Shown: piece after piece, positions 1,660 through 64,000 of the stretch
How the letters are laid out: the number at the start of each line of letters is the position of its first letter
Numbering within the stretch: position 1 is the stretch's first letter
Assembly (NCBI GenBank): GCA_047967505.1
Contig: CM106538.1
Length of the DNA: 64,000 bases
Source of the DNA: Dipteris shenzhenensis
Taxonomy: Eukaryota
Strand: one strand, 5' to 3'
The notes under the pieces: model-generated
Databases searched by the model: none
What the model saw: only the letters and a program-made list of their open reading frames with translations
What the model was told of the DNA's origin: nothing
Translations under genes and position numbers: made by a program

Positions 1660-1775
1660 AAGCATCAAGGTAAAGCTGCAATAGTCCAAATGAATCTGCC
1701 ACTTCACCTTCCTCCATCCATTTCGCATCAAGTGATGAATTTTGAAATTTTACCAAGTAGCGGTACAGCTTTCTC
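1660..1775 (-). pseudogene. Chromodomain-like C-terminus of chromoviral integrase
   Basis: ORF 1532..1810 contains RYLVKFQNSSLDAKWMEEGEVADSFGLLQLY, resembling the YLVK(W/F)...W..E..L chromodomain motif. Confidence 0.65.
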
Positions 1776-4732
1776 GTGTAAAGCATGCAAGGGAGAAGCA
1801 ATTTCTGCAAAGTACTTTATAAACCGTTGATAGTATTTACACAACCCAAGGAAGCTTCTGACTTCATGCAGATTTTTCAGAATTGGCCAACTCCTTATGG
1901 CCTCAACTTTTGCAGGATCCATCTTGACTCCATCCTTTGACACTATATGACCAAGAAAATGAATCTCATGCATAAAGAACTCACTTTTCTAGGTGTTTAT
2001 TAACAGCTTGTGTCTTTTCAACTCTTGAAACACAATAGTGAGGTGTTTCCTGTGCTCCTGCTCATTTTTAAAGAACACAATGATGTCATCGAAGAAAGTG
2101 CCCACAAACTTTCTGTGTGCTCTAAAAATTATATCCATCATTCTATTGAAAGTGGCACGTGCATTAGTCAAACCAAAAGGCATCACAACGAACTCACATA
2201 AGCCAAATGAAGTGCAGAAGGCAGTCTTGTAGACATCTTTAAGCCGTATCCTTATCTGATGGTATCCACTTTTAAGGTCAATACGACTGAACATTAAGGA
2301 ACCTTCCAATCGATCCCATATATCATCAATGTGTGGAATTGGAAAACGGTTCTTAATTGTGACTTTATTCAAAGCCCTATAATCAATACACATTCTCCAA
2401 CTGCCATCCTTCTTTTGCACAAGCAACACAGGGGAACAGTAAGGAGAATTACTTAGCTGTATTAATTCCTTTTCCAAGAGTTCCTTCACTTGTGACATTA
2501 TCTCTTCCTGTTGTGTCTTACTGACACGATAGGGAGGTATATTAGGCGGTGAGCTTCCTAGAATTATATCAATTTGATGATCCTCGGGCCTCTTGGGAGG
2601 TAATTCTTAAGGAAGTGCACCTGAGAAACAATCCTGAAAATCTGAAATAAAAGCATCCCTTTCTCTATCTAAAGAAGAAAGAGTAGAGCCTTCCTGAACT
2701 AGTTGGTTGTCCTCTTTGACAACATACGCTGAAATATGACGCTTTATTACATTGAAAATACAAGAAGCTGAAACTACAGGGATGGACTCCCCTTTCAACT
2801 TTACATCAAGTACATGATTTTTGCCTCTATGAGTTAAAGAAATCTTCTTGTTTCTCATCTGCACATCAGCCCCCACCCTGTACGTCCAAGGCATCCGAAG
2901 CAAAGCATCACACTCTAGCAAAGGCATAATGTAGAAGTCCTCTGCATCCTGATATCCCTGGATATGCATCCTCAACTTGCCAATAATAGGAGTGACAGGT
3001 GTGTTGAGTTCAGGGTTGGCCATATCACACATGCCAGATGGCCTCATTTCCTTAGGCTTGATGTCAAGCCTTCCTGCCATATTAGGAGTTATAAAATTCG
3101 CCTTTGCCCCAGAATCAAAGAAAAACAAACAATTCTGATTTCTGATTTTTCCCCATGCTCTGCACATCTCAGTCTTTTTCATTTCCTCTTCATCATGTGC
3201 ATGTGGCAAACTCCCAATCACATCTAAAAGAAGTCCAGCGGAAGGTTTAGGCCTTTTGCCCTTCCGATCAGCCTGTTTATCACCATTCTTATCATCATCT
3301 GACCTATCTCTTTTCTTGGATGGGCAATCATAAGAACGGTGTCCCTCTCCTTTGCATATAAAACATTTGTTTTGCTCCATGAGTGACTTTTTCTCTTCAT
3401 CAGGTAACTTGGTATGGGGCTGTTTATTAGGCTGTCCATGCCTTTGACCAACTTTGAATTGGGCTTTTCCTCCCTTTTGAAACGATCGTTTGCCATAATT
3501 TTTATTTTCAGATTTGATGTCCTTATCCTAGTGTTTGGCAGCCCGTTTGTTGTCTTCTTTCTTGCTGTCCATAAAGCCCAAATTCTTCTCCTGCATCCAT
3601 GCATATGCTGTCCTTGCATTATCAATTAATTGACTCATAGAACCCACCTTGGTTTTAATGCAATAATCACGTAGCTCACTAGGCAATCCACAACAGTACC
3701 TCTCTATTTGCTCTTTCAAAGAAACATGCCTGTAAGAGCTCAATGGCAGCAAAACATCCCAAAACCTTTGGGTATAATCATCAAGATTCTTGCAAAGTTT
3801 GTATGACAAGTCATGCCAGTGTGAAAGTACTTTAACTTCAAAAGTTGGAGTAAGCCAAGTAGAAGAGAACACTTGCTTAAATTCCAGCCAAGTAGCAGGT
3901 GCATCTCCATGAAGCATAAGGTTGGTGTACCACTTAAGTGCATTGCCTTTCAAAAATGTGGCAACCTTCCTCATCTTGGATGCTTCTGTAAACAAACCCC
4001 CAAGAAATGCAGCATCAAACTGTTGAAGGAATGTGAGGGCTTTGTACCTGTCCTGTACTCCATTATATGTCTCAAACTTGACATGAGAACCACCATCCTT
4101 GATTTCTTTATATACATTTGATATTGGCTGTCCCAAAGATGGCTGTATTTTTGCAGCATTCCCTTCACTAGGGAGAGCCATGCTTGGCTGAACATTAGGC
4201 ATGGGAGCATATGCTGTGGCTTGCATGCCTGGTTGCATTCCCACATTGTCATACATGGCTTGCTTTCAATGCCCAGTTGGTGGTGAAATCAACATAGCAT
4301 CAAAGATAGAATCTGTACCAAAATATTCAGGTTGCTGCCTCAAAGATGGCTGAGGTGGCTGAGCCACATTTATGGACTGCACATTATTATTTTGAGTAGT
4401 AGAAGTACCCAAACCAAGGCCTTGTGCAGGCTGCTCATACTGTTGCACTGGCTGTACTTTTTGTACCTCTTTCTCAAGTGCTCTTTTGGGGGATTCCTCT
4501 CTCTTGGAAGTCACTTTCTGAGTCATTTTTTATGGCTGTCCCTCGTGGGAAACTGATGCATGAGTGTGCGGTCCGCCATGAGAAGCTGATGCATGTGTGT
4601 ACTCACTCTTTCCGTGCTTGTGCTTTCTTGTGATTTCTTCTTCTTCTTGGCATTTGTTTGCACAATCAGAGCCAAATTTTGACTCAGCTGAGTCACAACA
4701 GTCACTGCACTTACAAGCTGTGCATTCAACAT
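1770..4732 (-). pseudogene. Gypsy gag-pol remnant (gag, zinc knuckle, protease, RT) with stops and frameshifts
   Basis: Gag FLQQFDAAF...FLKGNALKWY (3528..4256); CFICKGEGHRSYDC and FFDSGAKANFI (2607..3380); RT SPVLLVQKKDGSWRMCIDYRALN...MPFGLTNA...FFDD (1989..2498); FLGHIVSKDGVKMDPAKV (1728..1973). Confidence 0.95.
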
Positions 4733-9679: not shown

Positions 9680-12600
9680 TTGTCTACAAAGATGAGAGTC
9701 ATGGCATTCAAATCTGTGAGAACAAGGGAGAGTAGAGAGCAAGAGTGAGAGCTGAATAACTGAATAGAAGAACTGAAGTACAAGTGAGAGTGAATTAAGT
9801 GACAAAACCCTTATCCTATCCACTAACCGTAGTTAGGGATTGGACTGTGGTTAGGGAGAAAAACCTCAATGAGGGAAAAGTACCCCTAACCTACTTATTA
9901 CAATACATTGGCCACTGCCTAGAATATAATAATAATTCTAACACCCCCCTGCAGTGCCAATGTGGTGTACAAGGTAGTGATCAATCACCAAAAGGAGATA
10001 AGTTTAGGGCACTGCGAAATGCCTCAAACTTCTCACGTGGAAGTGCTTTGGTGAAGATGTCTGCAACATTGTCATGTGTTGACCCATACATCATATTGAT
10101 CTCCGTTGCATGCAACTTCTCTCTAACATAATGATAATGAACCTCAATGTGCTTCGTGCGAGCATGAAACACACGATTCTTTGCCATTGCTACTGACTAT
10201 CAGTGAGAATTGGAGAAGGACCCTCCAATAAGAGACAAAGAGCAGCAAACAAATGACGCAGCCAAACACATTCAACTGTCGCTGTGAAAGCTGCCCTGTA
10301 CTCAGCTTCACATGAGAAAGTAGCCACTGTAGATTGCTTCTTGTTCAGCCAAGAAATGCAAGCTTTGCCCAAAAAGAAACAATTACCACTAGTGGACTAC
10401 CTAGTATCATAGTCTCCAGCCCAATGTGAATCACTGTAAGCATGCATCTGCAAGTCACCCCCCGGGAAACATCAAGCCATAAGACTTTGTGCCTTGCAAA
10501 TAACGGAAGATGCGTTTTACAACCTCCCAATGTGTATGGGCTGTGCATATACCTGCTCACCTGAGATACTGCATACTGAATATCGGGCCTTGTATTGCAC
10601 AAATAGATGAGGCATCCAACAGCCTGGCTGTAAAGTGTGACATCGACTGATTCACCTGCATCATACGTAGTAAGCTTCAGCCCCGGCTACATGGGAGTGG
10701 CTATAGGCTTACAATCATGCATGTTAAACCTATCCAAGAGCTTTTGCACATACTTGGATTGAGACATAACAATGCCACACTTGTCTTGTATAAACTGAAT
10801 CCCCAAACATGCCCAAATCTGTCATGTCAAATTCAGCTTTCAACTCAGCTTTGAAATCTACAATTATTTCCTCATTTGACGCTATCAGCAACATGTCATC
10901 TAAAAATATCCCCCCCATCCTTCTTGATGTAGAGGGTGCTTTCCGTGGGACTATTATGTAGCCCCTTACTTGCCAGGAATGCACCAATTTTGGCATATCA
11001 TGTACATGGGGCTTGTTTCATCCCATATAAAGCTTTATTCAGCTTGCAAACTTGAAGTGCATTGCTAGAAAGTTCAAATCCAGAAGGTTATTTCACATAA
11101 ACCTCTACAAATCCCCATTAAGGAAAGCTGTTTTTATGTCCAACTGATGGACATTCCAAACAAAATTTGCAGCCATGGCAATAACTAACCTTATGGTGAT
11201 CATTCGGGATGTAGGAGCAAAAGTCTCCTCATAATCTAAGCTCTTCTTCTGTGCATAGCCTTTGGCAACCAGCCTTGCCTTGTACCTATCAATGGACCCA
11301 TCTGGCTTCCTTTTCACTTTGAAAACCCATTTGGTACCAATGGCATGCTTCCCAAGTGGCAAGTCCACAAAATCCAATGGACTGCAATTCATTGTGCATG
11401 GCATGTATCCAATGCACATTATCCTTGCTTCTTCAAAAGAGTCAGGCTCTTCTTCATCAAGAAGAGTACCTGCATAAGCTGTCTCAACAGAAAGAGCCCC
11501 CCCTGCGTGCCTTACTACAAGTCCTGCCAGGCAAATGTGCATCAAGCCTACTCTCCCTGAGGGTCTGTAGCAACCAATTCAGAACTGTTTTGGCTGCATG
11601 TATCTCTTGAATCTCTTGCCTGACAACTTCATCCACACCCTGTGGAGGTACAAAATCAGCACGTGGCTGAATCGGGGCATGTGGATCGGGAGGAGGTTGC
11701 TGTAAATTCTGATTTTCAGCATGAGCCTCAGCTGGGGAACCAAATGCTATAGGAAGCATCCCCTTGAAAACATCATCTGAAGAAGCTGGAATAGTAAATT
11801 CAGCATGTGTATGTGCTGAATTCTCTGAAAAAATAACATCTCTACTCACAAAAATCTTGCGAGAAGCAGGATTGTAGAGACGATAGCCTTTGCTTTGTGT
11901 ACTATACCCAACAAAAATACACTATTGCCTTATCTGACAACTTATGTCGAAACTCCACAGGCATGTGGGGATATGCAACATAACCAAAACTCTGAAGTGA
12001 CCCACTGAAGGCTTTCTCCCATGCCATGCCTCATCGGAAGTGATTGTCTTCAAAGCCTTTGTGGAAGCCCGATTCAAAACATAATTTGCACACTATCAAA
12101 ATACCAAGTGTTCAGTGTCTCATTGACACTAAGAGAGCATGCATCCTTTGAAGTGTCATAACTGCAAGTCAAGAAAGCATATGGGTCATCCTGAAGAGTG
12201 GCTGTAGTATCTGAACTATCCACTGGAATATCTGAAATGCAAGACAAAGGCATAGTGCTCTTCCACAAAGTTGGCTATAACATCCCCTCCATCATGTGCA
12301 TTAGGAGCTAATGCATTGAGATAGCCATACCTGAATCCCTTTTATTTTCTTTAGCTATGCGCTTCTTGCATTCACCAATGTAATGACCTGGCTTCTTGCA
12401 ATAGTGACAAAGGTGCTTCTTCTTAGGCTTATCTGCATCTCCTTTAGCCTTATAAGAGGGCTGTCCTGAATCAGCTTTATGCTGATGTGCAGGCTGATTG
12501 GAATGTTGCTTTTGCTGCCCTTTTCCTTTGGGCTTGAACTTAGAAAGCATGGCATGCTCACCAGCCCGTGTTGCCATATTTCTTCTTGTCTACTCTTCCT

Positions 12601-16422: not shown

Positions 16423-18582
16423 ATGCATTAACGCCTGCGGGAGGCCGGCCTCGTAGGCCTATGAGACAAAGTACAAACCAAAAGTAACTCATACAAGCCA
16501 TTGTAGGTTGGCTCACTAAGGCCCTTGCTGAGTGCTAAAGTGCTAAACTAGTACCAGCAAAATATCAAAATAGCATCAAGTGCTCAAAGCTAATGCTCCG
16601 AGTGCATGTCTAGGTTCCATGTATCCCGACACTCTCTGATGAGACACAAAGAGCTCGTATCTGTGTCTGTCGCACTGTCTCTCGAGGTGGCAGAGGGCGT
16701 GGTCTCCCCGATCTCTATATCCGATGGGCTACGTCAAGGGTGACGCCTCGTCTTTGGTGGTCTTTGAGGAGGCCTGAGATACACCAGGGACCTCGATCGT
16801 GTGTGCTTTGGTCACTCTCCACGCCGGCCTGTGCGTCTCTCGTCTGGTTCTCACTACTAACCCATGATGCCCTCATCTCATCTAGCTCCTCCTCCTCCTC
16901 AACCTCCCCTAGAGTTGACTCAGATGCATAGAATTTTTTGACACGTATCTATGCTCAGTCGACCTCAGTATCCTATGGGATCAACCACGGTAGCTCTCTG
17001 GTCTGTCGCACCTGTGTCGTCGCATCTCAATCAAGTAGAGCCCAATGCAAACCTGGTCGAAAAAATGGATCAGCCATGTAAGCGGACCAAAGCCATGCCC
17101 ATCCTGAAAGAGACAGTGGTACCATCTCGGGACTCATAGTAGACTGGATAGACATAGAAAATGCTCCTCTGTCTCGACCTCCCCCATCGTGCATAGTGTA
17201 CATATCCTCAACTCTCAGAGTGTGCCTACAGCTCTCCGTACGTCAAAGGGACGAAACTCGTAACTATCCAATGGCTATCCTCAGTGCATGCGAGAATCTT
17301 CTATCCTGAGGTATTGAGGTCCGATTATGAGACCACTCCGAGATCCTCAAGAAGTGGTCATGGTAGAACTGGATCTTGGTGGGGAGCTCTGGTCTTTCCC
17401 CCAAGCCAGAGACGTATGGAGCTCGAGGAGGTCCAACCATACGATACGATTGATCTCATCTCGTGTGATCAGCTCGGGCGGTGCATCCATGCTATACTAA
17501 AAGGGAGGAAGTTTATCCATCTAAATGCCGTGGCTATCAAACCATGTGGACACTAGTGCATACCATGCCGTATCAATACCGCGCTCTGCTAGTCGTCTAG
17601 ATGACTCTAGTGCTAGTCTCGGTAATATCCACCGGGATAAGGCCCAAACTCTGTGGAGGAATGTCCCTGTCTGAAAGATGGCATCAACTTGGAGAGGAAT
17701 CATGGCGAACTCTCCCGGTATAATCTGATGGGCAACTTAAGGCTTGCTCCGAATCATCATGGATCCCATAGTCACCTATAGTGTGTAGTGTGTAGCCTAT
17801 CAAATCTCTTCCACTATGTCATTGAAAGGTCACTCCCTCATAAAGGTGATGCATACATGGCAGTCGGTCTCACCAGAGTGTCAAAAAGCCAACCCTTTGT
17901 CGGGGGATCCTGGAAGTGCGTGTGAAAGCACTACCTCTCTAGTCGCGCTAGAGCACCCCGTCCTCACATGAGTCGTGCTATAGCTGCATGGGTCATCGTG
18001 AGGACTGACCCTGTGAACATTGCCCCCAAATACGTGTATGACTGCACTATCTCCACTAGCTCACCTCAATAAGTGAAACTATGTCGATGAAGCACTGCTC
18101 GTGAGGTGTTGAAGGATCATAACCTTGGTCTTCCCAAGGTTAACTGTCAAGTCTCTCTTTCTACAGAACACCCCCAAAGCCTCCAGATGTTACTTCAATC
18201 CCTCTGATGAGGATGATATAAGGACTATGTCATTTGCGTACAGCAACATCTGTACCATTAAGTCATTCAGAAATAAACTCTCTCCTCCTAGGCGGTCTAC
18301 AAAGGATGTAATCTCATCGATATATAGCCCCAAAAGAGTCGGTGAAAGGAGGCAACCTTGCTTCACTCTGATAAGGTTCTCAATCCAACCCGATAGACCT
18401 CCTGGGGCACGTATTCTCCCTCTGACGGACTCATATAGGCTCATTACCCCCCAGATCATGACCTCTGGGAGCTGTAACTCCTGTAATCTCCTTATCAAGC
18501 GAGAACATGAAATAGTATCGAAGGCCTTCCGAAAGTCTACAAAGCAAGTGTAGACTTTCTGACATCTCAACTTCGCCTCCTC

Positions 18583-18585
<3 letters not shown>
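16423..18585 (-). mobile_element. 5'-truncated non-LTR retrotransposon (RTE/RTEX-like LINE) ending in a (TC)n tract
   Basis: RT motifs CFVDFRKAFD, VKQGCLLSPTL, LLYANDIVL (18190..18642), then LTVNLGKTKVM and YTYLG; 3' end abuts (AG)n at ~16390-16422. Confidence 0.88.
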
Positions 18586-18616
<31 letters not shown>

Positions 18617-18618
<2 letters not shown>

Positions 18619-19400
18619 CTTAATGTCCGCGAGAGGCCTCACGGGCCTCTAGGAAAGAGTACTACGCTAGGACCCTTGCTAGGTACTAAACTATGATGAT
18701 CTGATGAACTCAAGGTGGCTCTCCAGTGAGTGGTAAATATATCTCGACTCTGCGCCTATGGGGCTGTCTCGCACTGTGGTGGGAGGCGCGGTCTCCTCAA
18801 TCTCTGAACCCGCTGAGCTATGTCCAAAGTGATTCCTCGTCTCTGGCGGTTTCCTCTGAAGAAAGCTGTGATAGGCCAAACCTCAATAGAGTGATCCACA
18901 CATCTCTCATATCAACGAGCTGCTTCTCCTCCACTCAGTTGTACCTTGGAGCTGGCTCAAATGCATATAAGTATGTGGCGCATCTCTGTACTCGATCAGC
19001 CTCTGTATCTATATCATGTGATCCGGTCGCCTCGTGCTACTCTCTAATCTGTAGTAGTAGTGTCTCCATGTGCATCTCAAATTAGTAGAGCCCAATGCAG
19101 ACCTGGTCATGGCAATTGATCAGTTGAGAGTGGGCCAAAGCCGCTCACCTCCTGATAGAGATAGAGGTATTGCCCTCGAATCTCCTAGTAGGCTGGGTAG
19201 GCACAAAGAAAATATTCCTCTATCTCAACCCCCCCAATGTGCATAGCATACAAATCCGCTACTCTCTGGGTATACTTACTGCACTTCCCCGTCTCAACCC
19301 TCAGCTGATGGGACAAAACCCGCATTTGTTCAATGGCGATCCTCAGTGCATGTGAGACTCCTCTGTCCTCAAGATACTCGGATCTGATGATGCATGTTAG
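18617..19400 (-). mobile_element. Second, shorter 5'-truncated copy of the same LINE family
   Basis: C-terminal motif MRVLSHQLRVETGK...VEIEEYFLC..Y (19185..19409); colinear similarity with ~16430-17250; 3' end abuts (AG)n at 18586-18616. Confidence 0.82.
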
Positions 19401-52200: not shown

Positions 52201-53162
52201 TTTAATAGTTGAGATTAAGAGCACTTAATCTCTTTTAGCTGTAGCATTTATTGTGATGCATTGTGTTGGTTTTAATAACTTACAAACATGTTTGATCTTA
52301 GAATGAAGAAGATTATAATACCATAATGCATGCAAATACTTAAAATGCAAAGGAAAATGAGTTCACAACCATGTCCATACGCTTGAACCCTTATAAATTT
52401 GAGGACCTTTTTTGTCTTCACAAACCAAGAAATGAAATTTCTAATGATTCTCATTTTTGCTTTATTTAGCTTTCTCGATTGTAGATGGTTGCATTGTAAT
52501 CTCAAGGGCTATAGAGAAATTTCCCATAACACTTCAGTTCAAGGGGGTCATTAAGGCTCCTATTTACATCTAGTTTATAAGATATTTTAACTCTAGAAAA
52601 TTTGGATTTTTGTTCTCAGTGTCAATAAACTAGCCCCTTATGTATGTAAACTTTTGTGAATAATGGCATTTAAAAAACACTCCTGTTGAACCTAGGTGGT
52701 AGAGTTACATACTTTTAAGTACGTACCCCCAAATATCAATCCAAGACAAACTATTCAACAATCCAAATATCATCTTTATCCATCCATTTTGGCATTATTA
52801 CGGAAGAGTAAAGTGATTGACGTGATATATGTGGACTAGTGTTTACTGAAAACCTGCAAACCATATAGAATGAACCTGCAACATTTTAATCTTCCCCCCT
52901 AAAAAACATGTTCAGAATTTTGTAAAATCTGCAAAATTTTAGGCAATTTAGTTATATTTTAGCTAAAAAATCACCAAGCCCCTGCTACTGTTGCTTCTTC
53001 TTCTTCTCTCTCCCTCCTTCCTTCTGCTACGTCTTCTTCTTCTTCTTCTTCTACGCAAGGCTCACTCGCCCCTTCTTATCTGGATAGCACAATTTACTGC
53101 TCTAATTTGGCCACCTAGATCCACATGAATTGTCTGACGACGTGGAACTCAATTGTGTGCAG

Positions 53163-53896
53163 AGTCACAAGAGGGCAAACGTAGCGCAGAAACGCATTTG
53201 AAGATCTGGGGCTCGGATGGAAAGCCGCATTCTCATCCAAGCGATGACTTATACTCTTCTCTCGCCATCAAGTTCTCTATACCTACAGATTTCGGCAGAC
53301 CCGGAGCCATCCTCGTGCTCAGCGAAGACTCAAACGAGTTTTTTCTTAAATCGATCACCCTGGATCTGCCTGACGGCCAGGAAATATATTTTGCCTGTAA
53401 TTCCTGGATAAACATCGCCAAGGCATACGAGGGGCCTCGCATATTCTTTGCCAACGAGGTTCACAGCTCCATTCTTTTTGTTAAACGTTCCTTATAGCTG
53501 CAAGCCTGCAGCCCAAGCTGTTGCGTACACTTTTTCCCCGGGTGCAACTTTTGTTTAATTTGGAGCTGCCTTGCAGGCTTATCGTCCAAATGAGATACCG
53601 CTGGGGCTGGTGAAACTACGACATGATGAGCTCGTGAACTTGCGGGGAGATGGTAAGGGTGAAAGGCTGAGTAGCTAGCGGATCTACGATTACGATGTTT
53701 ACAACGACCAGACAGCGATAAGGAGGCTGCGAGTCTAAGGAGCTTCCATATCCAAGAAGATGTCGGAGTGGACGCAAACCCACGAAGTCAGGTATCGATA
53801 TTGAACGAATGATTGGCAGAAGCCGATGAAACTGTTGAAGAAACTTTGTGTGCTTGTGCAGATCCTAAGTCAGAGCAGCACGGATCCCTATATATG
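53163..53896 (+). pseudogene. LOX: Lipoxygenase gene fragment with introns (exons 53163-53458, 53577-53791, 53862-~53896)
   Basis: PLAT domain DFGRPGAILV...EFFLKSITL...FACNSWI...RIFFANE; then [43 protein letters not shown]...LPYPRRCRSGRKPTK and DPKSE. GT-AG introns; premature TAG at 53676; exon 1 and the catalytic domain are missing. Confidence 0.92.
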
Positions 53897-55075
53897 GCAC
53901 ACCGAACTCACTTATGTGTTTCTGACACTTTTAAACAAAATTCTGATGCACAACATGTGGATTGTGTGTTGAATGAAGTTGCTGGAATTTTCAAGAAAAG
54001 CTCTAAAAGGTCATCTAGATTGGCAGAGTTGTCTAATCATCTTGATTGTCCAAGCTCGAGGATGGAAAAGATACACAAGATGAGATGGTTGAGTAGATTT
54101 AAGGTAATTTCCAAGATTTGTGCTTTTGGTATGCTTACAAGAGGAGAATACAAGAGTGTTTAAATTGGTTGCAAACTTTAAGTTCATGTACATGTTGCAT
54201 TTTTTGGGTGATGTGATGGATCATCTTGCAAGCTTGTCATATGCCTTTCAAAAGTATTATGTGGATGTTACAACTATTGCTAGTTTAGTGGCTTCCACCA
54301 TCACTATGCTAGATATGGAATTTATGGGGCCTCAAGACATCAACATCAATATGCAAGGGCATGATGGTTATGGATTTCCTTCTATTCCTAAGTTTGGTGG
54401 CCAAGATGGATGGTTATCTTCCATGCGTAGGGCTTTAAAAGGGGACATGCACTATGGGGTAAGAATTGATAGATGTGTTATTGGTAGTGATCTTGCTAAA
54501 GCTCTTGAGTTTCAAAGTGCTTTTTGTAATGAAGTGAAAAGAAACTTGCGATCTAGGTTTTATGAAAATCATGTGTTGGAGAGCTTGAAAATCCTTGCAC
54601 CTTCCACGTTTCCTTCAACTCGAGAGCTTAAAGTTATGGAGGAGATGAGCTGGGAGTGTTAGCACAGCAGTTTGGAAATGATGCAATGTTAGTGGATGGT
54701 ACACATGTAGGATGCTTGATTGATGGTAGAGCATTGAAGAGGGAATATCATATTTTTAAGATACAAGCAGCATAAGATTGGAGAGGAAAAGTGTTGAAAG
54801 ATGCATGGTGCTTTACTAGTAGAAATGAAGTGCTCCATGATAAGTATCTATGCTTCTTCGAGTTGCAGAAATCGCCTTGTTGTAGTGCAGCAGCACAACT
54901 ATTTGTGAAAGGGGCTTCAATATTCAGAACATCGTCAAGAACAAGCTGAGAAATAGATTGGAAACCAAGAACTTGGATTCACTTATGCAGATTTCAATCG
55001 TAGGACCACCTCTAGCAGAGTTTGATTTTGTGTCGGCTATACAACTATGGCGGAATGTAGCAAAACATGTAGACA
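53894..55075 (+). mobile_element. hAT-family transposase remnant (C-terminal half, including dimerization domain)
   Basis: MAHRTHL (CxxH motif), FKKSSKR, MRWLSR, FLGDVMDHLASLSYAFQ, STTICERGFNIQNIVKNKLRNRLETKNLDSLMQISIVGP; frameshifts and stops. Confidence 0.88.
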
Positions 55076-55251
55076 TGCATACAATGACTTAGAATGATAA
55101 TGTATCATGACTCCTTGAGCTGTTTCTTGCTTTTTCAGTGAGTGAAATAATAATGTAGCATGACTCCTTGAAGCTGTTTCTTGATTTTTCTAGTGCAAGG
55201 CGGCGGGTCTCATCTAACTTCTCAAGTTGTACCAATCTGGCCTCTACATGT

Positions 55252-58200
55252 TCATCTTCTGTCATCCTCTGTTCCTGCGCCAATCTTCGGAATCTCTATC
55301 TCTAGTGGTAAAACTGCCTCAGTACCATACACCAACTCAAAAGGGGTGTGACCTGTAGATGTTTTATGAGTGATGTTGTAAGCCCACACGGCTTCAGTGA
55401 CCTTCTGATCCCATTGGCTCCTATTCCCTGCGGCCATTTTTCCCATGGTTTTACAAAGGAGGCCATTGGTCCGCTCTGTTTGACCCATGGATGCTGGGTA
55501 ATAGATGCTAGAAGTGTGATGATCAATGCCCATGCGATCCATGAGTAACTCCACTGCTTCATTTAAGAATGGACTCCCATGGTCAGAGACTATCTCCATG
55601 GGTGTCCCAAACCTTGTGCAGATACGTTCAAAGATGAAATTTGAAACTACCTTGCCATTTGCAGCAGAGAGGGCGATAGCTTCAGCCCACTTAGTGACAT
55701 ACTGAGTGGCTACCAAAAGATACTTCTTTTTGCGGGCAGTCATGGGCAAGGGTCCGACAAAATCTATGCCCCACTTCTGAAACGGATGGATGGACATCAC
55801 TGGGTGATGTTGCCCGGGACGCAAATCCTTCCTACCGAAGAATTGACATGGTTCACAGGTTTTGCAATGCAAAGTGACATCCTTGAACAATGTCGGCCAA
55901 TAGTATCCAGCATGTAAAATCTTCTTAGCTGTATAGTCACTGGCATAGTGGCCTCCACAAAATCCATCATGATAATGCTTCAATACCTTAGGCACTTCAT
56001 CTGCATCAATGGCCCGTCTGAGTACCCCATCCATGCCTTGACAGTACAACACCCCATCAAGAAGGGTATAGCGCCTACTATCTCTGCAGATCTTCTTTCT
56101 CTCATAGCTAGTACTTTCTGAAGGAAAGGAGAAAGCGGTCAAAAACTTATAGATACCACCATACCAAGGATCCCCAACTTCTATGGCTGCTACCAGGGTT
56201 ACATCAAGGCACTCCTCTAAATCAATCAAAGCATTCTTCAAGTTGGAACAACCCCCTTTTACAATTTTGAAACAAAAATCATATTCTTGTAGAACTGCCA
56301 ACCACTTGGCCAACCGGCCCGTGGGATTTGGTGATTGAAGAACCTGCTTTGCAAGACCAGTGCTAGTGAGTATAAAGAAGGACTTTCCAGCCACATAATG
56401 CTTAAATTTCTCAATGCAAAACACCAAAGACAAGGCATGCTTGTCGGCCTCTGAATAGCGTCGCTCAGTGTCGAGCGATTGTCGAGAAGCAAATCGAACA
56501 GGATACATGAACCGATCTTCCCCTTGCTGGAGAAGAATACCTACCAGAGTGTGCTCACCAAACCTAGGATTGATATAGAAGGTCTTTGACCAGTCTGGAT
56601 TGCATAGAATGGGTTCTGAAGCCAGAGCATTCTTGATTTGTGCAAACCCATGATCACAATCCTCATTCCAAGAGAAATCAACCCCATCTTTTAATAGCAT
56701 AGTCATGGGCCATGTCAAAGTAGCATATTGATCAATGAAGCGGCGATAGTATCCTGCTAGATTGACAAATGAGCGTACCTGACGTTTGGTTGTAGGTGGG
56801 GAGAGCTTGAGGATGGCTTCTACCTTCTCGGGGTCAGGCTTGATGCCCTCGGATGAGACAACATGTCCCAATAACCTCCCTTGTGTGGCTCCAATGGTGC
56901 ATTTCTCAGGGTTGAGACTGCCATTTGCATCATTGACCCTTTGGAAGGCCAATCTAACCTTCATGATGTGCTCCTTTCGTGATGAGAATATACAGAAATC
57001 ATCTAAAAACACCTCCAAGAAATCCCCCAAATAAGGAGCAAACACCATCTGCATAAATCTTTGAAAGGTGGCAGGAGCATTGGTGAGGCCAAATGGCATT
57101 ACTTTGAATGCAAATGTCCCCCAGGGTGTGGCAAATGTGGTTTTCAACACATCTTCTTCGGCAATTCTGATTTGATAAAACCCAGAGTAACCATCACAGA
57201 AAGTATACATCTCATGACCACTTACCTTCTCAAGAATGAGGTCTTGAAAGGGTAGAGGATGATGATCCCTCTTGGTGGCAGCATTGAGCTTCTTATAGTC
57301 GATGCAGACCCGCCACTTGTTGTTTTTCTTTGGGATGACTACCACTGGTGAAACCCATTTAGTATTGTGAACCGGAACAATAAACCCAGCCTCTACAAGC
57401 TTCTGCAACTCTGAGCGCAAAGCATCGGTCTGCAGGGGCCCTAATCTCCGATACTTCTGAGCCACAGGCTTTGCATCAGGCTTCAGCTCTATCTTATGCT
57501 CTATGGCAGTCACATGGCGAAGGTGGTGGTAGCTAGTTGCAAAGAGGTCAGGGAAATCTTTGAACATTTCAAGAAACTCATCTTTCTCACCTGGAGTGAG
57601 GTCTGGAGAAAGCATTGATTCGAGCTGTTGAGGACTAGCTGTTATCTTTTCTGCAGGTGGCAGGGTCGGAGACACCCCCATCATGTAAACTTCCTCCTCT
57701 GAGAATTCGTCCCCCCCGTCTGATTCTTCCTCCATGGACTCAGACACCGAGGATGAGAGAGTATCATTGTCATGCTCCTCTTCTTCTTTCGGTTCCATGG
57801 CACCAGGTTGCACTGGGATCTTCTCCTTCGAAGCACCAAAAGACATGTGTCCTGTCTTCCAATAGCTGACTGCATCACTTTTTCTCAACCATGGTCTCCC
57901 GAGTATGGCTGGGTAACTTATGCCTGTATCTTCAATGTCCACTGCATAGAAATTGACAGTGGTGGTCAACCCGTTGACAGTGATGGGCAAATCCTCAATG
58001 ACTCCCATGGTGGCGAGTCGTCGACCATCTGCTACCTTGATTCGAGTGGAGGAACGCCTTGTACATTTCAAATTCAATTTCTTCATGATGCGGGGCACCA
58101 TGATATTACATGCAGCTCCCCCATCAACACACACATTTTTGACACGGCAATTATCTATGATGACATCTACTGTATGTGGGTGCTGATCAATTTCTTCAGA

Positions 58201-58527
58201 GATAGAAGATACCTCTCGTACCTTTTCCTTTTTCTTGCTCTTCCTTGTTGAGAGACCTTGCTGCAGCTCACGTCTCACCTTAGGGCTTAATGCTATTAGT
58301 TGAGGGAGTGTGATGCTTAAAGACTGATGAGCAAGGTCCTGAACGACCGAATAGTCCTCTTGCCCTGAGCCAATGGGAAAATCCGAGGGTGACCACTTAC
58401 TCCTGCGAGATCTTTTAGTCTTCTCTGTTGGTGGGTCTGCCATCCCAGCATCTGAGGGCTCTGAGAAGGACACCTTCTTCTTGGGGCGGCCCGCGGTCCA
58501 TGGTTTGAGAGGGGTCCGAGGTAGCAC
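55252..58527 (-). CDS. Gypsy pol polyprotein (protease, RT, RNase H, integrase), 1091-aa uninterrupted ORF
   Basis: VDGGAACNIM; WVSPVVVIPKK...CIDYKKLN; MPFGLTNAP; FLDD; HDGFCGGH...CEPCQ; WGIDFVGP; SDHGSPF; QTERTN. Confidence 0.93.
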   Translation of the reverse strand: MLPRTPLKPWTAGRPKKKVSFSEPSDAGMADPPTEKTKRSRRSKWSPSDFPIGSGQEDYSVVQDLAHQSLSITLPQLIALSPKVRRELQQGLSTRKSKKKEKVREVSSISEEIDQHPHTVDVIIDNCRVKNVCVDGGAACNIMVPRIMKKLNLKCTRRSSTRIKVADGRRLATMGVIEDLPITVNGLTTTVNFYAVDIEDTGISYPAILGRPWLRKSDAVSYWKTGHMSFGASKEKIPVQPGAMEPKEEEEHDNDTLSSSVSESMEEESDGGDEFSEEEVYMMGVSPTLPPAEKITASPQQLESMLSPDLTPGEKDEFLEMFKDFPDLFATSYHHLRHVTAIEHKIELKPDAKPVAQKYRRLGPLQTDALRSELQKLVEAGFIVPVHNTKWVSPVVVIPKKNNKWRVCIDYKKLNAATKRDHHPLPFQDLILEKVSGHEMYTFCDGYSGFYQIRIAEEDVLKTTFATPWGTFAFKVMPFGLTNAPATFQRFMQMVFAPYLGDFLEVFLDDFCIFSSRKEHIMKVRLAFQRVNDANGSLNPEKCTIGATQGRLLGHVVSSEGIKPDPEKVEAILKLSPPTTKRQVRSFVNLAGYYRRFIDQYATLTWPMTMLLKDGVDFSWNEDCDHGFAQIKNALASEPILCNPDWSKTFYINPRFGEHTLVGILLQQGEDRFMYPVRFASRQSLDTERRYSEADKHALSLVFCIEKFKHYVAGKSFFILTSTGLAKQVLQSPNPTGRLAKWLAVLQEYDFCFKIVKGGCSNLKNALIDLEECLDVTLVAAIEVGDPWYGGIYKFLTAFSFPSESTSYERKKICRDSRRYTLLDGVLYCQGMDGVLRRAIDADEVPKVLKHYHDGFCGGHYASDYTAKKILHAGYYWPTLFKDVTLHCKTCEPCQFFGRKDLRPGQHHPVMSIHPFQKWGIDFVGPLPMTARKKKYLLVATQYVTKWAEAIALSAANGKVVSNFIFERICTRFGTPMEIVSDHGSPFLNEAVELLMDRMGIDHHTSSIYYPASMGQTERTNGLLCKTMGKMAAGNRSQWDQKVTEAVWAYNITHKTSTGHTPFELVYGTEAVLPLEIEIPKIGAGTEDDRR

Positions 58528-58549
58528 GAGTTCTTTTCCCGAGATTAAG

Positions 58550-59545
58550 GATCTCTACATCAGAATCCTCAGTGCCCAACTCACTTAGAAGATTCACCCT
58601 TGGAATATTGGGGCATTCTGTGCGATAATGACCCTTCTGGTGGCACTCGTAGCATACAACATTAGCACGATCTCTTGGAGGGCGGTTGGCTTGATTTCTG
58701 ATGCCCACCATCTCAAGCTGAAGATCATTCAGGGCCTTGGCTAGGTCATTGACTCCAGGTTCTGTTGCAGGGGGGGCCTCTTTAGTTGGAGGGGCCACGG
58801 GAGTAGAGAGGAGGGGGGCTCGTGGGCGAGGCTGGGGAAATCTTCGAGGCGGAGGATGAGGATATCCACCTTGTTGAGGGTAAGCATCTAAGGGAGGACC
58901 ATACATCTGAGGTGGAGGTGGTGGATACATCCCTGATGAGGGGTGGGGGTATGCCCCTGAGTTAGACCCCCCAGGTTGTTGTTGCAGGAATGGAGGGGGA
59001 TGCGGAGGGACAATCGTCTTCTTTGAGGCGGGGTCAGACTGAACTTTATCAAACTTTTGAGCAATCTCATGTGCTAGCACCATAGTTTCTGGATTCTCCC
59101 ATTTAAGCTTGAGGCGGAATTCATCACTCGCTCCTGCTACAAGGTAGCCTAGCACATGCTGAGTCATTCCAGCTCGATACCCGGCATTGTCCTCCTGTGT
59201 GGCAATCAAACGGTCCAGGAGCACGGCCGCTCGATCCACATATCGACGCGCCGTCTCACCTTCTGACTGCTTCAAATTTGCCACCTGCAGGTACACATTC
59301 TCCGGCTCCTCTTCTTTGCCGAAATACTCAATCATTACTGCTGTCAACCTTGGTCAGCTTTGGCGAACATCTTCGGTTTGCTTCTCATACCACACTTGAG
59401 CCAAACCTTCTAGAAATGTGGGGAGAACCAATAGCCATCTGTCTTCAGTAAGAAAATTGAGAGAAACACAACGGCGCTTGAAAGCCACAAGATACTCATT
59501 TGGATTTTCTTCTACCCATCCACAAAACACGGGAATGTCAGCCAT
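58550..59545 (-). pseudogene. Gypsy gag (one internal stop near 59354; frame change to pol near 58530-58550)
   Basis: MADIPVFCG...FLEGLAQVWY; LKQSEGET; CYECHQKGHYRTEC knuckle. Confidence 0.88.
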
Positions 59546-59618
59546 GCTTGGAAGATGGAAAAGAGTGGCTTATCTATGGACGAACAATAGTAAGAGGAAG
59601 CTTGAACTGAAAATCGGG

Positions 59619-60863
59619 TGAAGATACCTCCAAAAAGCACACATAGGCAGGGTAGGGTGTGACTGGTGTAGTGTGAAATATTACACGAGAAGAATCTTCA
59701 GCATAGAATAGCACATAGACAATCTTAAAAGGACCAATCCTCATGATATCACTTTGATCATTACACGTGAGGGTTAGAGGTGCGGTGTTGCATGAGGTTG
59801 TTCATCAAGGCAAACAAGAATGCCATGACAAAGGTCAGCAATTGGAGAGCTTGCACATCACCTTCAGCTTCTTCCAGTTCTTGCAGTCGCCATGCTATTT
59901 CTTCAAGGGGTGTGCGGTCTGGCATCCTTCTTTTGAGCAATGTCTTTGAGAACCCTCCTGATGATTTGCCGAAGTCGGTGAACTCGTATCAAGTACGCCC
60001 AACACTTAGTTTCATGATGACCACAACCTTTGCATTCCTTACAAATGATTACCCTCCTTCGTGGCTTGCGGCTTTGTTGGGGTGGCGCTTCCACTCGCGT
60101 CATGCGTGATTGAAGTACAAGCTTCACGTGCCAAGAAATCAGCAACAAGATACTAGCTAGGTGGCTTTACAAGAATGAGCGTGTCCCATCAAGGAAAAGC
60201 CCCTTCCTTTTATAGCCAAAAGAGGGGGTCTCTCCATATTAATGTATCCTCCCACATGCATGGTGTGTGTGGAAAAGTCTCCCATGTGGGCTAGGTGGGT
60301 ACGCACTCTCAATTGTGTGCGACAACCCTTTGCCTCCATTTTCCACATAAATCAAGCCCCATATCTCAAGTCTATGATACTCCCTTGGTCTCTTTCCAAT
60401 TTTATAATAGGTTCAAACCTCTAGGAGGACAAGTGGAGGGTTGGCACAAGGAATCTTGCCACCTCATCCTACTTTCCCCATTATTTAACTAGCTCTCTTG
60501 GTCCTTCTATACCTCCCCCACATGGGCCTATCCCATATGGAGGAAATAACTCAATATAATAGCCATCTCCACCCATTTTATATTGCTTCTCCCATGGACT
60601 TTGAGCCATATCTCACTTAATGCATCCTAGGTGGAGGGGTGGCACATGGAGGAGCCATGCCACCTTGCATTTTATATTATTACTATTATGGATTATGTAC
60701 AACACACCTTATGGGTCCTCTTACATGGAAGGGTGGCACATGGACATGCCCTGCCACCTCAACCTTGGGCCCTATGCACACCATATTTTATTATACTATT
60801 GCCACATATACAAACACACATACATATTAATGCATTTTTCCTTAGACAATTTTATCCATAACA
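59619..60863 (-). repeat. Single LTR of the permuted gypsy element (inner boundary uncertain)
   Basis: Starts TGTTATGG at 60863 just after a G9 polypurine tract (60867-60875); TATAAAA near 60210; the candidate end ...ggtatcttCA at 59619 is not followed by a canonical TGG PBS. Confidence 0.6.
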
Positions 60864-61190
60864 GTTCCCCCCCCCAGGCAGGGAATGCACAGCATTTCCA
60901 TGCCTGGGACCATCACGCACAAAGAAAGACTTGAGGTAACGCTTGTTGATCACCTTCTTGCCATATGGTTCATGCAGCTCCTGAACTTGTACAGTCCCAT
61001 TGTTACGTTCTTTAATGACTTGGTATGAACCAGCCCACAGTGGCAGAAACTTCTTATCCATTTGGTGGTCCAATCTATTATCAAAGCATAGCACAACATC
61101 CCCCTCAGCAAAGTGTCTTTCCCATCCCTTGCGAATCTTAGCATCCAATCGGGCCTTTTGTCGATTCTTTTGGATCTCTGTTTGATGAAG
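60864..61190 (-). pseudogene. Integrase C-terminal tail (GPY/F-like) and PPT
   Basis: LHQTEIQKNRQKARLDAK...FAEGDVVL...KFLPLWAGSYQVIKERNNGTVQV...INKRYLKSF. Confidence 0.85.
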
Positions 61191-61999
61191 ATATATCCAC
61201 ATCTTGTCAAGAATGTAGTACCATTATATTTTCATGAATGTATTAGCAATGTTCCCTTGTAAATTTTCAATATATGATTATAAAATTGTTTAGAGTAGTT
61301 GTAAAATATAAGTTTAAGATTTGTTAAATTTTTGGAAATATAATTGAAAGTTTTCTAAGGCCATGATGACACAGGATAAAATTCAAATGTGCTGAAGTGC
61401 TCAAATTTCCGTTTTCACAAGGCTGAATCATAATATCTCAGGTTTGTGATTGCTAGGTTGATTCAAAGACTTGTAAGTTACATGCTTCTCTTCCCCCTCT
61501 CCCTTTCCCCTTGTGTCATAGTCTCCCTTTTCCTTCCCTCCATTTCTAATTCCTTTTTCACCCCTATGACATTCCTTTTCCCTCATGATCTCCTCTTCTC
61601 TATGGCCTTTGAGCGTCGCCATACTTAGCCTCTAGCCTCTGGTCTCGATTACTTTTCTAGCTAAAAGTAACTATATCCATACATAGATCTACAACCTTCC
61701 CTAGTTCCCTATTTCTATAGTTTCATGTGCCACCTAAAGGGATTGCTAGCCACATGATCTACCCTCTCCTTGCATCAACCTCTCACACCATATGATTTGA
61801 AAATGATGTGTAGGCGAATGTGTTCTTCAAATCATCCTATTTGTTTGATTGATTACACTTAGTCGAGTACTCCTTGATGATGTAGGATGTCGTTGGGATC
61901 ATCCTATGCACCTAACGGTAGATGGGTGAAATTTGTGGCTATGCCTGCATCCTTGAACAAAATCCCAAAGATAAGACTTCGGGTCTTCCCCTTAGGTCC

Positions 62000-62750
62000 C
62001 TCGAAACATTGGAATCTTCACCATGATGAAACACAAAAAGGAAACAGTAAGATCCAAATAATATCCCAAACAAGATCCAAACAAGATCCCACAGAGCCTT
62101 AGTATACCAAGACCAACTTATTATGCATAACCACTTGTTGGAAACCCTCCACAATGTGATCCTCAACAAAATCTTCAAAAATAAGTGACCAACTAGCACC
62201 ATGAAAACATTGTGTATACATGCATTCAAGAGTCACCCTTCTCACAATTGGAAGTGCACATAACAACTTCAAGATATTGTACTCTTCATCATTTTCATAG
62301 CAAAAGAAGTTGAAAGCATTGAGAATCACCACTCTGCTATTGTAGTCAAAAACTACCCAAAGGCTCAACTCTTCTTCACACCAAGCTGCCAGTGCATGAA
62401 ACAATCCCCAATCTATCATTGTGCCTGTTGACGGCATTGTCGATTCACCAACATATACAAGAGTGCAAACATAAAGGATATGATCATGATGACCATGCGA
62501 ATAGCTTGAGCATCACCTTCATAATCTTCTAGTTCTCTCAAACAGGCTGCAATATCTTCTAATGGAGTTCTTCCAGGCATCTTCTTTATCACATCAAAAA
62601 ACATATGCCGATAACAGTGCTATGTTGCAAATGCAACACATGCACTCTTGCATGCTCCACTCTTCAATGGAAGATGCACACATGATAGTTATTGAACGGT
62701 GTTATTGACAAAGGGATTTAGATGTACATCCTTGGTCTTATTTCATTTTC
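62000..62750 (-). pseudogene. Unassigned decayed coding relic, possibly Mutator/SWIM-type
   Basis: Adjacent protein-like ORFs 62416..62604 and 62099..62437 preceded by a Cys/His cluster near 62600-62660; weak. Confidence 0.25.
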
Positions 62751-63209: not shown

Positions 63210-64000
63210 ACCCTTTGAAAAATAATATAAAAACTACATTAAACTCTTGTTTTCTCTTTTTTTTTAATATAATTTTTTAAAAAACAAACTATATATGTTT
63301 TTACAATTAAATGAAAACTTCCCCAATTTGAAAAATAATATAAAAACTACTTTAATCTATTTTTTTAAATTAAAAAAATAGATGATTTTAAAATACAAAA
63401 TATATACATTTTGACATTTAATTTAAAACTTCACTAACATGAAAAATAATATAAAAACTACTTTAAACTCTTGTTTTCTTTTTTTTTTATAAATGATTTT
63501 TTAAAACAAAATTTAAATGTTTGTATATTTAAATAAAACCTTCACTAATTTGAAACATAACATAAAAACTGCTTTAATCTCTTTTTTTTTAAATAGATGA
63601 TTTTAAAAAACAAAATATATACATTTTGACATTTAAATAAAAACTTCACTAATTTAAAAAATAATATAAAAACTATTTTAAACTCTAGTTTTCTTTTTTT
63701 TAATAGATGATTTTTAAAAACAAAATTTAAACGTTTTTATATTTAAATAAAAACTTCAGTAATTTGAAAAATAACATAAAAACTACTTTTTTTAAAAAAA
63801 GATGATTTTAAAATACAAAATATATACATTTTGACATTTAATTTAAAACTTCACTAACTTAAAAAATAATATAAAAACTACTTTAAACTCTTGTTTTCTT
63901 TTTTTTTATAGATGATTTTTAAAAACAAAATTTAAACGTTTTTATATTTAATTTAAAAGTTCACTAATTTAAAAAATAACATAAAAACTACTTTAATCTC
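63210..64000. repeat. AT-rich satellite, ~100-113-bp monomer, at least 7 copies, running off the window
   Basis: Recurring 'aaaaataa(t/c)ataaaaactactttaa...gatgatttt...aaaacttcactaa'. Confidence 0.93.

Follow-up and report, generated by a model that had tools for sequence, protein, structure and literature searches.

How does a long terminal repeat (LTR) retrotransposon come to lie in a chromosome with a single LTR in its interior and with both of its ends inside integrase? The question was raised by a copy on the minus strand at positions 55192 to 61190 of a stretch of 64,000 nucleotides from Dipteris shenzhenensis (GenBank assembly GCA_047967505.1, contig CM106538.1), which we refer to as the window. 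We found that this copy, which belongs to the Ty3/gypsy group, corresponds to one unit of the element with both ends at the same internal point, and we lean towards the explanation that a circular one-LTR form of the element was captured during the repair of a chromosomal break.

A Ty3/gypsy element in permuted order

Read along the minus strand, the segment runs from the tail of integrase through the polypurine tract, the single LTR, gag and pol to the head of integrase. This permuted order had been proposed in a sequence-only reading of the window, and it was borne out both by direct reading and by the order of the Pfam domains. The C-terminal tail of integrase (60852..61190) contained 112 residues and a stop in translation, with the coding part extending from 61190 to 60855 and the stop codon at 60854-60852. 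It opened with a complete leucine codon (61190-61188) at the right junction, and its final 12 bases extended into the LTR. The polypurine tract, which was identified by direct reading as nine G followed by AA (60865..60875, minus strand), was located one base upstream of the LTR. The LTR itself (59755..60863, minus strand) had its outer end, TG, at 60863 rather than at 60864 as first placed. Its inner end, ...TGATCA at 59755, is a candidate, since the copy has one LTR only and there was nothing to compare it against.

The gag gene (58415..59545, minus strand) started with an ATG at 59545 and encoded a CCHC knuckle. The pol open reading frame (ORF; 55252..58554, minus strand) encoded protease-like, reverse transcriptase and RNase H domains as well as the zinc-binding and core domains of integrase. 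The last piece of the integrase head (55194..55290, minus strand) was read in the frame that follows a one-base length difference near 55288, and it ended with ...LEKLDETRRLA at the left junction.

The order of the Pfam domains in pol, protease, reverse transcriptase, RNase H and integrase, is that of a Ty3/gypsy (Metaviridae-type) LTR retrotransposon. The E-values in pol were 3.1e-27 for RVT_1, 4.4e-21 for RT_RNaseH_2, 1.7e-12 for rve and 4.2e-11 for Integrase_H2C2, and the domains covered residues 407-565 (RVT_1), 629-758 (RNase H), 850-904 (Integrase_H2C2) and 923-1020 (rve). The protease-like matches at pol residues 129-224 were under the Pfam cut-offs, as was the zf-CCHC match in gag (E = 0.0073, 16.8 bits versus a cut-off of 20.8); the pattern CX2CX4HX4C is visible in the gag ORF. 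Among the LTR features of a Ty3/gypsy element, the polypurine tract and the TG start were clear, and the inner LTR end and the primer-binding site were candidates only. A search with the integrase part identified 46 homologous proteins at E <= 0.001 among 1,342 candidates, the best with 47% identity, and the named homologues included one from a liverwort and one from a fern. When the element was searched against the 64-kb window, only the match to itself was returned, with no second copy and no second LTR.

The two ends meet at one point in integrase

To compare the two ends with intact relatives, we aligned the head end, the last head piece and the tail separately, without joining them, to the 46 integrase homologues. 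In all three of the proteins that aligned right up to the break, the head and the tail abutted exactly, at residues 1185|1186 in P0005, 948|949 in P0006 and 465|466 in P0007, and in P0004 one residue was located between the head piece and the tail. The last head piece aligned with residues 1164-1185 of P0005; its terminal 22 residues (55259 to 55194), which were encoded in another frame than the pol ORF, ended with ...LDETRRLA followed by two bases of one codon. No Pfam family was found for the tail, and the C-terminal approximately 90 residues of the homologous polyproteins aligned with it, beginning exactly after the head piece. The same dinucleotide was present at both ends of the element, AG on the plus strand and CT on the minus strand, so that the AG at 55192-55193 repeats the AG at 61189-61190.

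We also placed the contigs of four public sequencing runs from four studies (X1 to X4) on positions 53700-62700 at 90% likeness. These were four of 11 matching runs, and the best share of sampled words was 0.23, which identifies them as runs from relatives rather than from the source of the window. A total of 367 contigs were placed for X1, with 65 at a likeness of at least 99%, 181 at 95-99% and 121 at 90-95%. End-to-end joints from 61184-61187 to 55191-55193 were present in nine contigs, with 30 to 59 letters on the shorter side. In all nine, six letters separated 61184 from 55194, which is the length of a join through an overlap of 2 bases. The T at 55191 was also matched in six of the nine contigs, which landed on 55191, so that the redundancy may also amount to three bases, one of them mismatched. 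Because all nine joints had the same length, the normal copies of the family run from head to tail with nothing between.

Thus, the proposal that the two ends can be joined without a gap through the shared CT was supported by the protein alignments as well as by the contigs. Extra sequence between RRLAL and HQTEIQ in relatives, a test that had been set beforehand, was found neither in the homologue alignments nor at the contig joints, and the concern that the tail (60864-61190) might come from another family was answered by the contigs that cross the joint between tail and head. The permuted copy consists of one unit, with no more than two bases repeated, and the length of the unit is defined to within 2 to 4 bases.

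This agreement bears on several explanations in which the two ends arose separately. Truncated copies are common in regions of this kind, as is also indicated in passages of a study of tandem retrotransposons (PMC11899658), and two neighbouring copies could have suffered independent truncations or deletions that happened to end at the same position of the element. By our arithmetic, however, the chance that two such ends coincide within +/-2 bases of a unit of 5,997 bases is about 5/5,997, or approximately 1 in 1,000, and the two pieces also share one uninterrupted LTR. We regard this explanation as having next to no probability. If a tandem array had been trimmed by two deletions, both would have had to end at the same base, and for copying by replication there is no reason to expect a stop after just one turn.

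Identical phase at both ends is, on the other hand, what would be expected of a concatemer. The same kind of event may have inserted several head-to-tail units, as a rolling-circle concatemer or a tandem array, which were then collapsed to one by the assembly. Tandem structures of LTR retrotransposons are common in plant genomes according to passages of the study cited above (PMC11899658), and integrase tail, LTR and gag also lie next to one another in the middle of such arrays (LTR-internal-LTR-internal-LTR). However, the assembly contains one unit, and the tandem structures described in those passages have an LTR at either end and 5-bp duplications around them (PMC11899658), whereas the permuted copy ends in integrase, has one LTR and lacks a duplication. 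An insertion of several units is in our view quite unlikely.

A different joint was seen in organism B, where 61173 was joined to 55669 in two contigs (X3 and X4), with seven other letters at the joint. This joint represents a deletion derivative, in which the head of integrase lacks its end and the tail its first bases.

Junctions and flanking sequences

An insertion made by integrase in the canonical manner would have an LTR at each end, unlike the copy examined here, in which both ends are located within integrase and the one LTR is in the middle of the element. As the sequence-only reading had stated, the element does not end with an LTR on either side and lacks a 5-bp target-site duplication, the pentamers next to it being TTTCT to the left of 55192 and ATATA to the right of 61190. 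The right junction (61189..61190) consists of the last AG of the element, after which the flank continues with ATATATCC. At the left junction (55192..55195), the bases AGTG are common to the element and to a tandem duplication of about 54 bases in the left flank (55093..55195, plus strand), the second copy of which is cut off by the element. The two copies, 55093-55140 and 55146-55195, were 90% identical over 50 bases. The second copy aligned four bases into the element, and because the alignment of the repeat runs through 55195, the AGTG belongs to both, in agreement with what had been noted from the letters.

The ends of the flanks were not significantly similar to the ends of the element, as would be the case for diverged copies; the observed local scores were reached by 35 of 300 and 46 of 300 shuffled sequences. 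In a search for an inverted partner of the left flank end, no exact 12-mers were shared by 30000-54000 and the junction zones, and 33 loose matches were obtained versus 28.6 expected by chance. Known types of transposon ends were also considered and rejected. The left flank ends with TAGTG, as a CACTA-type terminus would, and no inverted partner was found. A CTAG at 55190-55193 would fit a Helitron, but the right flank has no TC start and an A|T host site is absent; nor does the right flank begin like the end of either a CACTA element or a Helitron. The motif CERGF...KNKLRNRL in the left flank resembles hAT dimerisation domains and suggested a hAT-like remnant. Four ORFs in the left flank gave no Pfam family except for a PLAT domain and a homologue search with an ORF of 184 residues was empty, and the hAT name was dropped for this flank.

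The right flank contains a remnant of a distantly related element (61947..62586, minus strand) that is oriented like the permuted copy and has a leader ORF and the start of gag in collinear order. In tblastx comparisons, 62586-62437 matched 59931-59782 in an additional ORF upstream of gag with 46% identity over 50 residues (E = 7e-13), and 62024-61947 matched 59545-59468 at the start of gag with 42% identity over 26 residues. Given this collinearity, the right junction is located about 750 bases inside the remnant and not at the end of an element.

It was also noted that the segment 61827-62700 is present in contigs from all four of the relatives' runs.

The nature of the flanks also bears on an explanation that needs no circle. 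A copy with two LTRs might have received a very large insert in integrase and then have undergone unequal exchange between LTRs, giving a tandem pair of which the window represents the middle. Unequal exchange is among the origins proposed for tandem structures in passages of PMC11899658, and the left 55 kb of the window are rich in other retroelements, so large nested blocks do occur. However, the insert would need to be larger than 58 kb, because the right flank was not matched in the left 55 kb and no second piece of the element was found in the window, and the flank ends carry no transposon termini. Nor is an overlap of 2 bases known to fit any common target duplication except TA. Taken together, we find this explanation improbable.

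The junctions could alternatively be artefacts of the assembly, if unrelated reads were joined at one or both of them or if reads from extrachromosomal circles were threaded into the chromosomal contig. There is a parallel in a permuted scaffold from a rotifer, which its authors, in a passage of their article, interpreted as an assembled extrachromosomal one-LTR circle (PMC5408684). However, the 64-kb window extends beyond the element by 55 kb of other sequence to the left and 2.8 kb to the right; only 2 to 4 bases are common to the junctions and the flanks, with no long repeat that could mislead an assembler, and two false joins would have to fall at the same position of the element. We therefore consider an artefact unlikely. 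Among the matches listed for the four relatives' runs, no contig bridged 55191/55192 or 61190/61191, which speaks neither for nor against the junctions, and the segment beside the left junction (54603-55190) had almost no contig cover in these runs. Metagenome contigs were also scanned for exact matches to 30 bases spanning the right junction and to 22 bases from the tail, with 0 matches in each case.

Proposed capture of a one-LTR circle at a chromosomal break

The explanation that we favour, with modest confidence, is that a unit-length circle with one LTR was broken once in the C-terminal region of integrase and joined into a chromosomal break via a microhomology of 2 to 4 bases. The starting molecule would have been a circular DNA of unit length from a Ty3/gypsy family, containing the whole internal region and one LTR. 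It may have been a by-product of cDNA synthesis or have arisen by LTR-LTR recombination of a chromosomal copy, and the sequence would fit either source. The circle would have been opened by one break in the coding sequence for the C-terminal region of integrase in pol, and end joining that did not involve integrase would have inserted the resulting linear molecule at a chromosomal double-strand break. In the joining, a stagger of 2 bases may have been filled in, or 2 to 4 bases of microhomology (AGTG) may have been used, and host DNA was possibly lost or copied at the insertion site. Templated filler from the repair could account for the duplication of 54 bases beside the left junction, although this is only a suggestion given the 10% divergence between its copies.

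In its most specific form, this explanation would make the permuted copy a heritable chromosomal fossil of a complete one-LTR circle, with the redundancy of 2 bases as the trace of a staggered break and the 54-base duplication as templated filler, and would place it in a separate class of integrase-independent insertions. We put this form forward tentatively, as possible if not quite probable. As for the cause of the break, a central polypurine tract is no more than an idea: on the sense strand there is a short run of G, but it follows the break by about 90 bases, whereas a central flap would require it on the other side.

Several points weigh against the capture of a circle. Only one such copy has been seen, and in passages of a study in flies, circles are treated as reintegrating rarely or never (PMC12951756). 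Both flank junctions are those of the assembled contig, and the real locus could exceed one unit if an array was collapsed. Continuity between the left and the right flank was not found, the observed score being reached by 279 of 300 shuffled sequences. No listed joint in the relatives' contigs skipped 55192-61190, a result that is uninformative because the flank parts beside the junctions were not shown to be covered. As the flanks are without mutual continuity and no empty site is known, a clean single insertion into contiguous DNA is not demonstrated.

Insertions without integrase are known from other systems. Endogenous plant pararetroviruses have circular genomes that are integrated by illegitimate recombination, giving a permuted order; the capture of Ty1 cDNA at chromosome breaks yields junctions that were not made by integrase; and integrase-defective retroviruses, which are laboratory mutants, give rise to oligomeric or permuted proviruses. 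In all three, the junctions are formed without integrase at arbitrary internal positions, as in the copy described here. They differ in that pararetroviruses have no LTRs and no integrase, and that Ty1 capture involves linear cDNA fragments and not a full unit.

The closest match in content is provided by the extrachromosomal one-LTR circles of LTR retrotransposons and retroviruses, which contain the full internal region and exactly one LTR, and in which the polypurine-tract side and the leader side are joined through the LTR, as here. The permuted copy differs from these circles in being linear, located within a chromosome and opened inside integrase. One-LTR circles have been described in plants, yeast and flies, as stated in passages of two articles (PMC12786077; PMC12951756), and the relevant passages of the fly study report that circles form abundantly and that integration is rare (PMC12951756). 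General statements that circular DNAs can reinsert are found in parts of PMC9694575. In the integrase-independent retrotransposition of Tf1 in fission yeast, there is likewise no integrase chemistry at the ends of the element, according to a passage in PMC12786077 that cites Li et al. 2022. That pathway, as outlined there, proceeds by homologous recombination or single-strand annealing at sequences similar to the element and results in tandems (PMC12786077), whereas the flanks of the permuted copy share only 2 to 4 bases with it. A full-text literature search identified no description of a chromosomal, unit-length, circularly permuted copy with a single LTR, although supplementary files, which were outside the search, could hold precedents.

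The presence of one-LTR circles serves as a marker of retroelement activity, and the circles themselves are generally regarded as by-products that do not re-enter the genome. A chromosomal copy, once verified, would provide direct evidence for the return of such circles via break repair and show that they are not always dead ends. Annotators would gain a searchable signature, namely one unit and one LTR with both ends at the same internal point, and scans for this signature would allow the frequency of the route to be measured against those of canonical and tandem insertions. The permuted copy represents a non-canonical mode of insertion of an ordinary, known type of element. This conclusion rests on one locus, and a single locus does not yet establish that circles return to the genome.

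Condition and age of the copy

The sequence-only reading took a pol of 1,091 uninterrupted residues as a sign that the event was young. The ORF is in fact 1,100 codons long from stop to stop, and its last approximately 12 codons are out of frame, downstream of a frame change that lies near 55288, some 30 codons ahead of the break. At that position, the contigs of X2, X3 and X4 were one base longer than the window, whereas those of X1 were the same as the window. Furthermore, gag contained an in-frame stop codon, TGA, at 59356-59354, and the gag and pol ORFs were in different frames with an overlap of 140 bases, a difference that may reflect either a natural frameshift site or damage. The argument for a young event fails in view of the stop in gag, the frameshift in pol and the change of frame from one ORF to the other. 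The parts of that reading that concern the topology of one unit with one LTR, the single break inside integrase and ends formed independently of integrase are well supported. The permuted copy is now an inert, damaged insertion. The divergence of the listed X1 contigs from it was about 1-6%.

Further features of the element and its surroundings

A TATA-like sequence, CTATAAAAGG, was identified within the LTR at 60215-60206. Loose contig ends at 60151 in X1 and X2 were considered as a sign of the inner boundary of the LTR and rejected, since the diverging sequence still aligns loosely by eye; they look like the start of a more variable upstream part of the LTR rather than a boundary. Three bases past the candidate LTR end, direct reading revealed a putative primer-binding site, TGATATCATGAGG (59739..59751, minus strand), which we take to resemble a site of the tRNA-iMet type. 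No tRNA genes were found in the 64-kb window.

The additional ORF upstream of gag (59762..60109, minus strand) is located in the LTR or leader and consists of two frame pieces. A CX2CX4HX4C knuckle precedes an acidic stretch in its product, which has a hydrophobic C-terminus and matched no Pfam family. Since the older relative in the right flank contains a counterpart, the 46% identical segment described above, the ORF seems to be conserved in this lineage.

The left 55 kb of the window constitute a retroelement-rich block with at least three other retroelement pieces, all of them on the minus strand. These are a piece with gypsy-type gag, protease and reverse transcriptase and with stops between the ORFs (1764-4265), a copia-type reverse transcriptase fragment (11108-11578) and a further reverse transcriptase fragment (18193-18648). 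An exon-like ORF on the plus strand (53138-53494) encodes a PLAT/LH2 domain (E = 3.5e-11) of the kind present in plant lipoxygenases; no other lipoxygenase parts were seen near it, and it may be a gene fragment. At the other side of the element, an AT-rich tandem array extends from 63214 to the end of the window at 64000, with a period of about 110 bases and a higher-order period of 205 bases (89% matches, 3 copies).

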